From Escherichia phage JP4, in the sequence record PQ330092: 64,000 nucleotides of DNA. One strand, 5' to 3'. Positions 28,440 through 46,053 of the stretch are shown in pieces. The notes under the pieces are model-generated. The model had not been told where the DNA came from and did no database searches. It saw only the letters and a list, made by a program, of their open reading frames with translations. The position numbers and the translations under genes are program-made. How positions within the stretch are numbered: position 1 is the stretch's first letter; each line of letters opens with the position of its first letter.

Positions 28440-28499
28440 TTGCACCGTACTGATAAAAGCGTATAATGTTTTACATCGAGAGCGGGAACACTTCCCGCT
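28440..28499 (+). promoter_or_regulatory. early promoter with 5' hairpin, cassette 1 of 22
   Basis: TTGCAC-16-TATAAT, then AGCGGGAA-CAC-TTCCCGCT. Confidence 0.65.
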
Positions 28500-28522
28500 A
28501 CACATTAAGAGAGATTAAAACG

Positions 28523-28885
28523 ATGGCGACTCAAATCAATAAAATCATGCTTAACCTGGTAAACTTCCGCGAAGAGATGAAAGGTCTTCCGGCTGAAACT
28601 GTAAAAATTCACATTGCAGCTTATCGGGAACTTATTGCAATGTTGCCGCTTAAGCGTGAACAATACGCCGCTACTTTGATGCTTGATTCAATGATCCATA
28701 TAATGATCTCAAATGATTTAACGATGGTTTATCAGTACATGGGCGAAAATTTCGCGGTGTGTAGTAAGCCAGTACCAGGGATGGCAACTACTGAGGAATT
28801 GCACGGTTTAAATTTAAAGCAAGATGCATGGGATAATATGCCTCGTTTCCTGGTATGGGCTGACAGTGGCAAAATTTACAAATAA
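28523..28885 (+). CDS. hypothetical early protein (120 aa)
   Basis: Track ATG 28466 lies in the -10 (TATAATG); start moved to ATG 28523, downstream of the hairpin. Confidence 0.75.
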   Translation: MATQINKIMLNLVNFREEMKGLPAETVKIHIAAYRELIAMLPLKREQYAATLMLDSMIHIMISNDLTMVYQYMGENFAVCSKPVPGMATTEELHGLNLKQDAWDNMPRFLVWADSGKIYK

Positions 28886-28899
28886 GTTTAATAAAGTAC

Positions 28900-28958
28900 T
28901 TGCAAACTAAGTTTAAAAGCGTATAATGTTTTACATCAGGTGGGGAATAGTTCCCCAC
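28900..28958 (+). promoter_or_regulatory. early promoter with 5' hairpin, cassette 2
   Basis: TTGCAA-16-TATAAT, then GTGGGGAA-TAG-TTCCCCAC. Confidence 0.65.
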
Positions 28959-28977
28959 TATATAAGAGGATTAAAAA

Positions 28978-29217
28978 ATGGCTAAATCAAAAATGTTCTT
29001 AGGTCACAAAAACAAAACTCATTGGAATGTAAGCCTTTGGATTAATAACGATGAATCATTATACCGGTTGGCCCAGGACTTTATTAACGATAGCACTAAT
29101 CGCAATGATGCGGCCCGTCATATGATGTTATTTTTAGAACAGACTGGACAAGATAAAACACCGGACGGATTCAAATATAGCACTACTGCGATCCGTGCGG
29201 CGATGGTTGGAATGTAA
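28978..29217 (+). CDS. hypothetical early protein (79 aa)
   Basis: Track ORF; GAGGA SD; own cassette. Confidence 0.8.
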   Translation: MAKSKMFLGHKNKTHWNVSLWINNDESLYRLAQDFINDSTNRNDAARHMMLFLEQTGQDKTPDGFKYSTTAIRAAMVGM

Positions 29218-29305
29218 TAGAATAGAATTTATTTAAAGTACTATTGCACGCTGATAGTACTTTATAATAGTGTTTTATTCATACACCAACGATAAGGGCA
29301 ACAGC

Positions 29306-29572
29306 ATGAATATTAAGTATTTTGCGACGCGTGAACAAGCTCGGATCGCCGCACGCCAGGACGGGGCAACGTTTAAAGATATGGGCGTACAATCGGAACG
29401 TGGTAAACGTTGGGCCATTGTAAAGCGTAGTACCGCCAGATCATTACAGTACTGGTTAGCGGCCTTAAAAAGTCCCGATAGTGTATCGCGTCGAGTGGTA
29501 GAAATAAAGCTCGACCGAAAGGGCAACCGCGTGACCGTGTACCGTACTAAAAAGATTGCAGTACTTGAATAA
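29306..29572 (+). CDS. hypothetical early protein (88 aa), paralog of 41251..41646
   Basis: Trimmed to MNIKYFATREQARIAAR..KGKRWA..RKGNRVTVY, which aligns with the paralog's N-terminus. Confidence 0.7.
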   Translation: MNIKYFATREQARIAARQDGATFKDMGVQSERGKRWAIVKRSTARSLQYWLAALKSPDSVSRRVVEIKLDRKGNRVTVYRTKKIAVLE

Positions 29573-29579
29573 AAAGTAC

Positions 29580-29638
29580 TTGCAAACTATGTTTAAAGGC
29601 GTATAATGTTTTACATCGAGAGCGGGAACTCTTCCCGC
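29580..29638 (+). promoter_or_regulatory. early promoter with 5' hairpin, cassette 3
   Basis: TTGCAA-16-TATAAT, then GCGGGAA-CTC-TTCCCGC. Confidence 0.65.
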
Positions 29639-29659
29639 CTATAACCTGGAGTAATAAAA

Positions 29660-29890
29660 ATGACTAATATGTATATGACTGAAGTTAAAACCGTAAAAGA
29701 TACTACCACGAATAAAACTACTTACTTACAGCGGATCTGTGGTGTATGGCAACGTATCAGCAAATCAAAGTACTTTAAATTAACATCATATGCCAATCGT
29801 TCGGATTCATTCAGTACTGAAATAAAAGGTAATAAAGTACACCAATACGGCACTTATTATTATTATAGCCTGGACGCGATTGTAGTATAA
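29660..29890 (+). CDS. hypothetical early protein (76 aa)
   Basis: Track ORF; GGAG SD. Confidence 0.75.
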   Translation: MTNMYMTEVKTVKDTTTNKTTYLQRICGVWQRISKSKYFKLTSYANRSDSFSTEIKGNKVHQYGTYYYYSLDAIVV

Positions 29891-29920
29891 GTAGTTTACA
29901 AATCTTTACAATTGCCAGTA

Positions 29921-29949
29921 TTGACTTATTTTGTCAGTACTGGCATAAT
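29921..29949 (+). promoter_or_regulatory. sigma70-type promoter, left member of a convergent pair
   Basis: TTGACT 29921-29926, 17-bp spacer, CATAAT 29944-29949. Confidence 0.6.
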
Positions 29950-29955
29950 GTATTC

Positions 29956-30058
29956 ATTGGCAGATAAGCCGTAGCCCATAGGGTGCGGAAGTGTATCTAT
30001 AGAAAAAGTAGTTTAGTACAGTTACAATTGTGCACCCGGTGGGTTAGCTGTTGTCATG
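29956..30058. ncRNA. convergently transcribed non-coding locus with box and inverted box
   Basis: Box 29972-29999 and inverted box 30042-56 can pair (11 of 12 positions); no ORF. Confidence 0.4.
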
Positions 30059-30064
30059 GGGTAT

Positions 30065-30093
30065 ATTATACCAGTACTGGATAGTGCTGTCAA
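30065..30093 (-). promoter_or_regulatory. consensus sigma70 promoter, right member of the convergent pair
   Basis: Minus strand: TTGACA (30093-30088), 17-bp spacer, TATAAT (30070-30065). Confidence 0.65.
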
Positions 30094-30140
30094 TACTTTT
30101 TTTTTACTATTCAGTACTGAAAACTATTTTTAAAAAGTAC

Positions 30141-30168
30141 TTGCAAACTATGTTTAAAGGCGTATAAT
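30141..30168 (+). promoter_or_regulatory. sigma70-type promoter P1, upstream of a structured leader
   Basis: TTGCAA-16-TATAAT. Confidence 0.6.
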
Positions 30169-44539: not shown

Positions 44540-44557
44540 ACTAAAAGGAGTAATAAA

Positions 44558-44782
44558 ATGGCTAACTTTGATGAACTGATGCGGGAAGTAGCTAACCTGG
44601 CAGAAGAGAAGAAATCATTCGATTCTATCTATAACACCGCTCACCGTGATTCAGTACTGGCATGTAACCAGGATCAAAAAGATGAACTAATCGCCACCTA
44701 TCATGAAGCATGGAAGTACTACCGACAATGGGAGAAAGAAGAAAGAGAGTCTACCATTGACGGCCTCAATAATCTAATCTAA
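44558..44782 (+). CDS. hypothetical early protein (74 aa)
   Basis: Track ORF; AAGGAG SD. Confidence 0.8.
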   Translation: MANFDELMREVANLAEEKKSFDSIYNTAHRDSVLACNQDQKDELIATYHEAWKYYRQWEKEERESTIDGLNNLI

Positions 44783-44801
44783 AAGTTTTATTTCAGTACT
44801 A

Positions 44802-44830
44802 TTGACATAGCTTGATAGTACTGATGTAAT
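44802..44830 (+). promoter_or_regulatory. sigma70-type promoter (no hairpin)
   Basis: TTGACA-17-TGTAAT. Confidence 0.5.
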
Positions 44831-44858
44831 AACTTTACTAACTACAAGGGGAAACATA

Positions 44859-45116
44859 ATGGAACAGTTCACACAATATCGGGTAAATCCTCAAGCGATG
44901 GCCTACGTAGAAGACCATAAAACGTTACCAGTACTAACACCAATTAAAGGCCATATCTATCGTGCAATGTCGTGGTGTACGGCCCAGGATGGCTATAAAA
45001 CCGTAGCCGTTGGTATGTATTGCGGTAATGGTGAATGGTTTGATCCAAATAATCCGGTAGCCATTGACAGTACTGAAAAAATGAAATGGGCCGACTACAT
45101 CGAAGATATTTCATAA
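44859..45116 (+). CDS. hypothetical early protein (85 aa)
   Basis: Track ORF; GGGGA SD. Confidence 0.8.
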   Translation: MEQFTQYRVNPQAMAYVEDHKTLPVLTPIKGHIYRAMSWCTAQDGYKTVAVGMYCGNGEWFDPNNPVAIDSTEKMKWADYIEDIS

Positions 45117-45122
45117 AACTAT

Positions 45123-45183
45123 TTGACAGTACTAACCAGTAATGTATAATGTTTTACATAGAGCGGGGGAATAGTTCTCCCGC
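45123..45183 (+). promoter_or_regulatory. early promoter with 5' hairpin, cassette 21
   Basis: TTGACA-16-TATAAT, then GCGGGGGAA-TAG-TTCTCCCGC (same hairpin as cassette 19). Confidence 0.65.
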
Positions 45184-45205
45184 CAATAGTTTGGAGTAAA
45201 ATATT

Positions 45206-45406
45206 ATGTCTATCGCTCTCGCCCTGGTTGAAGTACTGAAAGAAGCTAAAGCCAACCTTATCGATGTACAGATTAAGGAATTGCAAAACGGCTTAATCGG
45301 CTGTACTTGTACCGCTGGCGGTGCGGCAGACTATCGAGAACACGAATCACTCGAATCACTGGTTCGGTATCTTACCATGATCGTTGATGATTGGAGAATC
45401 ATCTAA
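45206..45406 (+). CDS. hypothetical early protein (66 aa)
   Basis: Track ORF; GGAG SD. Confidence 0.8.
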   Translation: MSIALALVEVLKEAKANLIDVQIKELQNGLIGCTCTAGGAADYREHESLESLVRYLTMIVDDWRII

Positions 45407-45423
45407 CAAAAAAGAATAAAAAA

Positions 45424-45456
45424 AGGGATTGACTCCGGTCAGTCCCTTTGCTATTA
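45424..45456 (+). promoter_or_regulatory. terminator/promoter hybrid hairpin
   Basis: GGGATTGAC-TCCG-GTCAGTCCC then T3; TTGACT 45428-33, 17-bp spacer, TATTAT 45451-56. Confidence 0.65.
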
Positions 45457-45462
45457 TATACG

Positions 45463-45560
45463 CATAGACAAAAACTAGCCCACAGGGTGCATAGGTGTAT
45501 CTAAAATATATAGTTAATAACGGTGAGTAACTATCTGCTGGTGGAACTAAAACTATTAAT
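45463..45560 (+). ncRNA. candidate orphan box transcript
   Basis: Box TAGCCCACAGGGTGCATAGGTGTATCTAAA at 45477-503, Chi at 45536-43; no ORF. Confidence 0.35.
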
Positions 45561-45568
45561 AAAAAAGT

Positions 45569-45597
45569 ATTGACAAAGTATATCAGTACTGCGATAA
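45569..45597 (+). promoter_or_regulatory. sigma70-type promoter
   Basis: TTGACA-17-GATAAT. Confidence 0.55.
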
Positions 45598-45651
45598 TGT
45601 ATCTCGTAGGGCGGCAATGGTGCGACGGCCCACAAAGTTAGGAGCTTCAAA

Positions 45652-45984
45652 ATGACTACTTCAATCGCTATCGTTAAAGCTTTCATCCGTACCAATGTTT
45701 CTTCTGTATTCATCGACGGTATGGATCGGGAAGTAGAATACTCAATCATTATCGCACAGACTGCAAACGGTGCTCGGTATATCCTTAATGATAGTGAAGC
45801 AAATCACTACTACTTCACTAAAGCCACTGGCTTTAAACGCATCGATGCTGATGTAGTATACGCTAAGATGAATAAGCTGGTAGACAAGATTAACGCTAAA
45901 GGCACTATTGATTTACAGTACTGGACCGAAACCGATCCAGAATATGGATCTCACCGCTACCTGAATCCAGGAATTAAAATGTAA
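45652..45984 (+). CDS. hypothetical early protein (110 aa)
   Basis: Track ORF; AGGAG SD. Confidence 0.85.
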   Translation: MTTSIAIVKAFIRTNVSSVFIDGMDREVEYSIIIAQTANGARYILNDSEANHYYFTKATGFKRIDADVVYAKMNKLVDKINAKGTIDLQYWTETDPEYGSHRYLNPGIKM

Positions 45985-45991
45985 AAAGTAC

Positions 45992-46053
45992 TTGCATAGT
46001 ACTTAGATTCATGTATAATGTTTTACATAGAGAGGGGGAAATGGTTCTCCCTC
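45992..46053 (+). promoter_or_regulatory. early promoter with 5' hairpin, cassette 22
   Basis: TTGCAT-16-TATAAT, then GAGGGGGAA-ATGG-TTCTCCCTC. Confidence 0.65.

Follow-up and report, generated by a model that had tools for sequence, protein, structure and literature searches.

Escherichia phage JP4 (sequence record PQ330092) carries, within the 64,000-nucleotide stretch analyzed here (the window), a series of 22 cassettes spread over positions 28440-46053, each made of a sigma-70-type promoter, a short G-rich hairpin, a Shine-Dalgarno sequence (SD) and the start codon of a small gene. The cassettes are a specific feature of a long direct terminal repeat (DTR) and no general trait of this phage's promoters. 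We think it somewhat better than an even bet that each is a self-contained expression cassette for one small DTR gene, with a hairpin that would act in cis as an RNA structure, either as a stabilizer or as an insulator of the ribosome binding site (RBS). Comparison of relatives further shows the ~90-bp cassettes as homology patches for the insertion, deletion and replacement of whole genes. An earlier reading made from the sequence only had proposed a dedicated regulatory and recombination module for a large set of genes, and our results support both a dedicated, repeated expression module for a large small-gene set and a role in recombination.

The terminal repeat and its cassettes

Megablast searches of a phage collection match positions 28440-46053 to 121Q/PBECO4-type jumbo coliphages (Asteriusvirus) at ~93-96% identity. 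The closest relative covers at most 66% of this query, split over several pieces, and the region is thus mosaic. By self-BLAST, 26792-43886 and 46906-64000 are 100% identical, which defines a tandem unit of 20,114 bp and agrees with the statement of the sequence-only reading that the cassettes recur per unit. Because the unit's two ends align to positions 1 and 21525 of a phage vB_Ec-M-J feature that bears the annotation ‘Direct Terminal Repeats’, and because repeats of ~20-21 kb have been described for fEgEco12 and Sharanji (PMC13070987, PMC11895373), the 20,114-bp unit is, on sequence grounds, the ~20-kb DTR of a 121Q/PBECO4-like jumbo coliphage (Asteriusvirus). Two copies side by side are compatible with a concatemer junction or with a window spanning the end and the beginning of a linear record.

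The unit holds ~53 small genes on the + strand, 22 hairpin cassettes, ~10 promoter cassettes that lack the hairpin and a few terminators with a T-run; the remaining DTR genes have no cassette of their own and are members of short operons. The cassettes give a predicted map of ~30 transcription units, and so a precise, testable description of how the terminal repeat is transcribed. Among relatives, the genes immediately outside the DTR are tightly packed, leaving no space for cassettes, while annotated genes within it include a DksA-like protein, an acetyltransferase, a spackle protein and a Ser/Thr kinase. Families of unknown function in PHROG were matched by 17 of the 20 cassette genes tested. 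The DTR looks like a host-takeover or pre-early region, and we infer early timing for the cassette genes from their sigma-70 consensus promoters and their position in the terminal repeat.

All 22 cassettes lie on the + strand, and their starts, as given in the sequence-only reading, are each the first base of a -35 hexamer resembling TTGCAA or TTGACA (Table 1). A detector requiring TTGNNN, a spacer of 15-18 nt, TATAAT with at most one mismatch, and, starting 6-18 nt after the -10, an uninterrupted stem of 6 bp or more with no fewer than four G-C pairs recovers every one of them in positions 1-46905, together with weak-promoter matches at 1005 and 7310 that both fail the stricter promoter filter used for the hairpin counts below. 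Over the whole window the detector returns 40 cassettes, since 18 of the 22 are repeated in the second copy.

The cassettes follow one plan. Upstream of the -35 is an A-rich tract with AGTAC, and the promoters match the sigma-70 consensus at 10-12 of 12 positions. The spacer stays within the 16-17 bp previously given, though by both our own count and a promoter scan it is 16 nt in 21 cassettes and 17 nt only in the one at 38547. The hairpin begins closer to the promoter than the 12-15 nt that had been claimed: the gap from the -10 to the first paired base is 8-14 nt across all 22. Stems of 6-9 bp enclose loops of 3-5 nt (8 nt in one case), giving hairpins of 17-22 nt with predicted fold energies of approximately -11 to -17 kcal/mol. 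The ATG lies 17-24 nt past the hairpin, with the SD between, as expected from the original description, and the whole cassette fills the intergenic space of ~85-95 bp. Loops vary within the one genome (TAG, ATGG, ATGA, CGG, ACATC and others), and identical cassettes also exist (19 and 21; 9, 11 and 15).

A MAFFT alignment of whole cassettes shows an almost invariant CAT 6-9 nt after the -10. Transcription usually prefers a pyrimidine at -1 and a purine at +1, 7-8 nt from the -10, and by this preference the A of the conserved CAT, the eighth nucleotide after the -10, is the likeliest start. Assuming that start, 1-7 nt (median 5) are predicted to stay unpaired at the 5′ end, and the predicted ensemble leaves the SD region largely free of pairing (mean 0.71). 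A scan of the + strand for terminators found a T-run after none of the 22 hairpins, whose tails read ACTA.., TGGTAA.., CTAA.., in keeping with the earlier remark that they lack a U-run. These missing T-runs, with true T-run terminators nearby, rule out the cassette hairpins as intrinsic terminators.

Two further observations concern start codons. ATGs that fall inside cassettes, one in the hairpin loop of the cassette at 31198 (position 31246) and one within TATAATG of the cassette at 28440 (position 28466), are annotated as gene starts, and such in-cassette starts occur both in deposited annotations and in PHROG profiles (for example in the relative L002 at 1668-2087 and 4451-4702). More likely starts are the in-frame ATGs at 31276 and 28523, each of which has an SD, and the cassettes thus account for mis-annotated start codons in deposited relatives.

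The hairpin is far more frequent than chance would give: when the 45 nt downstream of the promoter were shuffled, a qualifying hairpin appeared in 0.8% of trials. Strong promoter matches are followed by a hairpin in 22 of 44 cases on the + strand of the DTR, versus 0 of 9 on its - strand and 0 of 14 in positions 1-26791 of the window. The complete genome of the relative EC22.5-2 (351,992 bp) gives the same picture, with 26 of 46 in the 21 kb homologous to the DTR and 2 of 266 elsewhere. The DTR specificity stated above follows from these counts, the hairpin being common after promoters in the DTR and rare after those elsewhere. Where the sequence-only reading had put the further promoters without a hairpin at about 17, we count 22 strong + strand matches in the unit, ~10 of them directly ahead of a gene; those at 30259, 38130, 40409 and 41178 are equally consensus cassettes that lack the G-run as well. 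A BLAST search with one cassette found nothing among 5,426 complete E. coli genomes, which shows that it is no host element, and an Rfam scan of 26000-47000 at E<=1 returned noise only. A pattern scan of IMG/VR added little, yielding 18 loci, mostly on contigs of ~310-480 kb plus a few shorter ones.

Table 1. Coordinates of the cassettes, repeat copies and associated elements in the window; cassette positions run from the first base of the -35 hexamer to the end of the start codon.
Feature	Position	Strand	Hairpin	ATG	Remarks
Full repeat unit	26792..46905	+			20,114 bp; self-BLAST; DTR end alignment
Second, partial unit copy	46906..64000	+			18 of the same cassettes; self-BLAST
Cassette 1	28440..28525	+	28481-28499, AGCGGGAA-cac-TTCCCGCT	28523	-10 at 28462-28467
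Cassette 2	28900..28980	+	28939-28959, GGTGGGGAA-tag-TTCCCCACT	28978	Chimera relative to the two cassettes flanking an extra gene in vB_Ec-M-J
Cassette 3	29580..29662	+	29622-29638	29660	
Cassette 4	30943..31025	+	30984-31002	31023	Downstream gene replaced in vB_Ec-M-J
Cassette 5	31198..31278	+	31238-31257	31276 (likely start codon)	G.U pair at base of stem
Cassette 6	31666..31742	+	31702-31720	31740	Hairpin only 8 nt past -10
Cassette 7	31982..32063	+	32024-32040	32061	Product a signal-peptide protein; ‘spackle’ in fEgEco12 annotation
Cassette 8	33285..33370	+	33325-33346	33368	
Cassette 9	33604..33683	+	33644-33663, GGGGAGAA-atga-TTCTCCCC	33681	Indel junction versus vB_Ec-M-J
Cassette 10	35188..35269	+	35228-35247	35267	6-bp stem, 8-nt loop
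Cassette 11	35417..35497	+	35457-35476	35495	
Cassette 12	36004..36085	+	36045-36063	36083	
Cassette 13	36439..36523	+	36479-36498	36521	
Cassette 14	38547..38624	+	38586-38604	38622	17-nt spacer; -10 TATAGT
Cassette 15	39168..39247	+	39208-39227	39245	Indel junction
Cassette 16	40748..40834	+	40790-40808	40832	Chimeric junction; relatives carry an extra gene flanked by a 108-bp cassette duplication
Cassette 17	43294..43376	+	43335-43354	43374	
Cassette 18	43599..43682	+	43639-43657	43680	Chimeric junction; 99-bp duplication in relatives
Cassette 19	44148..44229	+	44188-44208	44227	
Cassette 20	44483..44560	+	44521-44539	44558	
Cassette 21	45123..45208	+	45163-45183	45206	Hairpin identical to that of cassette 19
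Cassette 22	45992..46076	+	46032-46053	46074	Last hairpin base 46053
Second-copy cassettes	48554, 49014, 49694, 51057, 51312, 51780, 52096, 53399, 53718	+			-35 starts
Second-copy cassettes (continued)	55302, 55531, 56118, 56553, 58661, 59282, 60862, 63408, 63713	+			-35 starts
Canonical intrinsic terminator	31502..31534	+	GCGGGGAG-ataataa-CTCCCCGT		Followed by a T-run
Further canonical T-run terminators in unit	32378, 33104, 41669	+			Start positions
RB49-like composite element	35875..35916	+	12 bp, containing the -35 (TTGACT) of a TATTAT promoter		Also at 39895, 43164, 45422

The hairpin as a probable structure in the transcript

The cassette plan recurs in other Rak2-like genera with quite different stems; these too lie at a distance of 8-14 nt from the -10, and an SD again comes next. 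RaK2 carries GGGGATACA-tag-TGTATCCCT, GGGAATGAA-tga-TTCATTCCC and GGGGCAA-acaac-TTGCCCC; Munch carries GGGGGAA-acatc-TTCCCCC; and Serratia phage BF carries GGGTAAGC-aatacc-GCTTACCC and GACAGGAGA-tag-TCTCTTGTC. Since the whole-cassette MAFFT alignment staggered the stems by one column, covariation was assessed in an ungapped alignment of 33 distinct hairpins with 3-nt loops, using no covariance model. Of all cells, 92.3% were paired, versus 73.6% in shuffles and 50-67% when the partner was slid, and there were 53 double-sided changes versus 14.5 in shuffles, in a test that is partly circular, the stems having been picked for pairing, and for which promoters outside the DTR are the unbiased control.

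In orthologous cassettes from five phages, loops change freely, and single-base differences in the stems are mostly A/G or C/T, retaining a G.U pair on the + strand. The non-Watson-Crick pairs in stems are G.T in 8 cases and A.C in 3. Fold energies show no clear asymmetry between the + strand and its reverse complement (15 versus 14, with 35 equal), and the argument for a strand therefore rests on the G.U and A.C counts and the orthologue polymorphisms. Given that stems compensate across genera while their position after the -10 and their G-first polarity are kept, that loops are free, and that stem changes retain G.U with G.T exceeding A.C, the comparisons point to a structure on the transcribed strand and not to a duplex-DNA operator.

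The presence of the hairpin is tied to the gene. Orthologues of the 22 hairpin genes retain a hairpin in most comparisons, and for the genes at 35267, 38622 and 44227 the hairpin type has been exchanged while the gene stayed at least 95% identical. Orthologues of nine genes with hairpin-less promoters never have one. This stable presence and absence marks the hairpin as a maintained gene-associated trait that is dispensable for some DTR genes.

Two explanations would deny the hairpin a role in the transcript. It could be an element of the DNA, either an operator at which a dimeric repressor would sit just past the promoter or a cruciform serving enzymes of recombination or replication, and perfect inverted repeats at +12 to +33 could indeed block RNA polymerase. 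The cassettes are recombination junctions, and in the fEgEco12 (L003) orthologue of the cassette at 43599 (gene 43680) the loop is inverted from tag to cta with an identical stem, so that the palindrome appears to have flipped in place, as occurs at palindromes. However, the half-sites change together as mirror images with no consensus per half-site, and their spacing varies with loops of 3, 4, 5 and 8 nt, which together led us to reject an operator or palindrome. The G.T excess and the changes that keep G.U on the + strand, which are mismatches on the - strand, also speak against it; arms of 6-9 bp are short for cruciform extrusion, and crossovers are spread over parts of the cassette beyond the hairpin. 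We consider a DNA-level element very improbable. Even harder to credit is a functionless passenger that duplication and gene conversion would have copied together with the promoter. The cassettes are paralogous, some being identical, and the swaps of hairpin type between orthologues resemble conversion, but pairing survives complete turnover of the stem across genera, and presence or absence is stable per gene.

Under the reading that we favor, host RNA polymerase would start at the CAT and place the hairpin at ~+5 to +27 of the cassette's own mRNA, where it would abut the 5′ edge of the ribosome footprint. As a cis-acting RNA structure, it could leave a near-zero exposed single-stranded leader and thereby protect the 5′ end and guard against RNases. 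It could also sequester an SD-like purine stretch (as in GGGGAGAA) together with its pyrimidine complement, leaving the true SD free with any gene and so insulating the RBS. The outcome would be a quantitative tuning of expression, through stability and translation, for a fixed subset of genes. Either way, the cassette is a compact natural part composed of promoter, 5′ untranslated region (UTR) and RBS, with a hairpin usable for tests of mRNA fate.

Several points weigh against this reading, beyond the partial circularity of the covariation test. Like the 5′ stabilizers of ompA and papA, the cassettes have a stable hairpin near the mRNA 5′ end, an RBS and a short leader, but those stabilizers tolerate a tail of 2-4 nt and the tail predicted here is ~5 nt (1-7). 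The classical 5′ stabilizer of Emory, Bouvet and Belasco from 1992 reportedly needs its stem within ~2-4 nt of the end, a limit that a tail of ~5 nt would exceed. RNase E, moreover, reportedly scans past orthogonal stem-loops (PMC9943677). The tail and this scanning together weaken the specific suggestion, made when the cassettes were first described, of a 5′ stabilizer. The ~10 sister cassettes that manage without a hairpin mean that it is not essential for expression. A requirement for structure alone does not explain the extreme purine-first polarity, with 5′ arms that are 92% purine and 285 G-C versus 25 C-G pairs. For Rak2-like phages, we found no transcription-start data in the literature except for the distant PA5oct.

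This polarity is one reason to consider that the hairpin is a by-product of a purine-rich initial transcribed sequence. The 5′ arm, at ~+6 to +14, would aid escape from near-consensus, escape-limited promoters, and the pyrimidine 3′ arm would only neutralize an SD-like, R-loop-prone RNA. Such a role accounts for both the polarity and the fixed distance from the start; it suits promoters that match the consensus at 10-12 of 12 positions and carry A-tracts, and the purine content of the initial transcribed sequence has been noted to correlate with productive yield (PMC5961368). The consensus sister cassettes at 30259, 38130, 40409 and 41178 nevertheless do without a G-run, and strong promoters outside the DTR do without the hairpin, leaving promoter escape, with the neutralizing 3′ arm as part of it, an improbable explanation.

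The same G-first polarity is found in the promoter-early stem-loops (PeSLs) of T4-like phages, and it is conceivable that the hairpin is an insulator of this type, attenuating or terminating incoming upstream transcripts or marking a processing site, its place after the promoter being incidental. The G-run/C-run stem-loop of RB49 PeSL211/210 cut lacZ read-through about as well as rrnB T1 (PMC2839356), and it too has no T-run in its sequence. With ~45 co-oriented promoters and few terminators in the DTR, read-through would otherwise accumulate. On the other hand, a hairpin downstream of its own start would affect its own transcript equally; the T-run is missing from all 22 although proper T-run terminators are used in the DTR; and the 8-14-nt position is kept across genera despite replacement of the stem, which an intergenic terminator would not need. 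We regard an insulator as unlikely, if a little less so than promoter escape.

Recognition by a protein is about as doubtful as promoter escape. A phage or host factor, for instance a nuclease, a shut-off factor or a nut- or put-type antiterminator, could bind the hairpin and control all DTR transcripts, and the G-first 5′ hairpin might then be a regulon tag on the first-entering DTR genes of Rak2-like phages and some Vequintavirinae, with a dedicated factor that protects, times or shuts off the set. If so, it would be a post-transcriptional analogue of a promoter class, moving with each gene upon cassette recombination. The DTR specificity of the hairpin (26/46 versus 2/266 in EC22.5-2), the conserved G-run at the stem base and polarity, and the stable link to the gene are in favor of a tag, and the T-run terminators inside the DTR are possible targets of antitermination. 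Against it, loops and stem sequences vary freely within one genome, and no candidate protein was identified. The nut boxB of lambda and the put of HK022 are likewise promoter-proximal RNA stem-loops in early transcripts, but a genome has just one or two such sites, whose loops are sequence-specific or whose folds have two stems, whereas the window has 22 copies with varying loops. We saw no boxA-like partner or second stem near the cassette hairpins by eye, and Rfam gave no match, so that modification of RNA polymerase of the put type, raised by the sequence-only reading, or of the nut type finds no support.

Two other candidates can be set aside. RNase III needs longer stems than the 6-9 bp seen here, and an N4-type hairpin promoter for a virion RNA polymerase is made unlikely by the position of the hairpin downstream of a consensus sigma-70 promoter.

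Gene shuffling and likeness to known systems

The genomes of relatives differ from the window in whole genes, and the differences tend to fall at the cassettes. Chaining of BLAST matches of the unit to the DTRs of vB_Ec-M-J, E9.1 and fEgEco12 yields 12 distinct junction events. In 10 of them, one or both ends fall within a promoter cassette, a class of element that makes up 23.5% of the unit (p=0.004). There are four cases in which a relative has an extra gene between two cassettes and the window has a single one, the duplicated stretch being 20 bp in one case and 80-108 bp in three. Base-by-base alignment shows the window cassette to be chimeric at these junctions: its left side corresponds to the upstream copy and its right side to the downstream copy, and the switch from one to the other falls within the promoter or the hairpin or close to the SD. 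Cassette-linked genes also occur in an unrelated phage group. A5-4, a member of the Vequintavirinae with a genome of 145 kb, has at least five small DTR genes in common with the window, two of them present twice, at 72-88% identity and in another order. The detector finds four hairpin cassettes at the A5-4 locus, and some of its promoter or cassette stretches match window cassettes at 74-85%. The sharing with A5-4 and the cassette-bounded swaps form the pattern reported for PeSLs (PMC2839356, PMC4122927).

PeSLs have been described in RB49/phi1, T4/PST and KVP40/nt-1 (Arbiol et al. 2010, PMC2839356; Comeau et al. 2014, PMC4122927), and the sequence-only reading had called the window cassettes PeSL-like. 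This holds for their parts, their polarity and their behavior at indel boundaries. Both have an AT-rich upstream tract, a sigma-70-type early promoter, a stem-loop of a G-run and a C-run with the G arm first, an SD and an ATG; both occur as single cassettes per small ORFan-type gene, clustered in a plastic region; and both bound gene insertions, deletions and replacements between close relatives. The likeness fails in the placement of the stem-loop. PeSL stem-loop position varies: in the intergenic regions of RB49 we find it between the -35 and -10 (for example TTGACAGGGGATCACCGATCCCCTATAAT) or around the -10, in agreement with the published account (PMC2839356), and in PST it is found ahead of the promoter. 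Of 55 strong promoters in RB49, just one is followed by a hairpin. PeSL systems are further marked by the excision of cassette-flanked genes as mini-circles, for which RB49 was examined by inverse PCR. The PeSL stem-loop is thus outside its own transcript and has been interpreted as a terminator of upstream transcription, whereas the window hairpin lies in its own 5′ UTR. The window cassettes also differ in belonging to a Rak2-like jumbo phage and in being confined to the DTR. PeSL-like cassettes are already known, then, and what is new is the placement of the stem-loop downstream, in the cassette's own 5′ UTR, in the DTR of a jumbo phage.

Terminal repeats used as early regions have precedents in the pre-early, or first-step-transfer, region of T5 and the ‘host-takeover module’ of SPO1, whose genes are expressed at the very start of infection. 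These share with the window a long direct terminal repeat crowded with small genes and many strong host-type promoters, but have no sequence relationship to it, and we know of no promoter-linked 5′ hairpin cassette in either.

The Rak2/121Q jumbo phages carry hundreds of unknown small genes whose expression and exchange are largely undescribed. The genome papers of RaK2, phAPEC6, fEgEco12, Sharanji and UE-S1 mention neither promoters nor hairpins, and that of CBB, which is silent on hairpins, lists 18 predicted RpoD-like promoters with UP elements, of which three fall in the repeat. Although no surprise in principle, the element is clean and conserved, lends itself to direct tests and belongs to a phage group that is poorly understood, and it carries modular gene shuffling of the PeSL type past the T4-like phages, into jumbo phages and across phage families.

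Other elements in and around the repeat

The repeat also contains elements with the RB49 layout. A family of non-coding units on the + strand (35860-36010, 39880-40030, 43149-43300 and 45407-45560) has a 12-bp hairpin, AAAGGGATTGAC-tccg-GTCAGTCCCTTT, within which lies the -35 of a TTGACT-17-TATTAT promoter, followed by ~60-90 nt with a conserved core, AGCCCACAGGGTGC...GTGTATCT; the composite element at 35875 drives such a conserved non-coding stretch. Similar promoter hairpins occur at 1105 and 2518. The units are 69-85% conserved in RaK2, Munch and Serratia phage BF and have no Rfam match, and they may be small RNAs. On opposite strands at 29895-30110, two units with this core face each other (promoters at 29921 on the + strand and 30093 on the - strand), and their predicted transcripts would overlap as a sense/antisense pair.

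Other stretches resemble cassettes in part. The + strand elements at 30141-30258, 32449-32590 and 40022-40137 have cassette-type promoters, with the same -10 and CAT, and a longer imperfect hairpin (GGACGGGGAAC...) with no open reading frame. In two of the three, a second, hairpin-less promoter for the next gene follows. These elements may be decayed cassettes or short non-coding transcripts. The intergenic stretch at 34309-34388 has a weak promoter-like TTTACT-17-TATAGT, then CATAGGGGAAAG, which is a cassette 5′ arm without its 3′ arm, and a new 12-bp inverted repeat across the promoter spacer. The whole resembles a cassette that has decayed, with its stem-loop placed as in RB49, a possible further case of that layout (at 34321).

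The palindrome AGTACT occurs at 349 sites in the whole window, versus 22 +/- 4 expected from shuffles, an excess of ~16-fold (for example at 28435, 28895, 31213 and 35432). These sites are spread over coding and non-coding DNA, in and out of the repeat; within cassettes, AGTACT abuts the -35 (AGTACTTGCAA) and is often found in the spacer (TAGTACTGTATAAT). The excess suggests a genome-wide binding or modification motif. Lastly, the non-repeat part of the window has a family of ~100-120-bp repeats between - strand genes (13422-13542, 14635-14756, 15457-15560, 16680-16794 and 20363-20481), which includes the T-run terminator GCCAGTA-cttga-TACTGGC-TTTTCTT.

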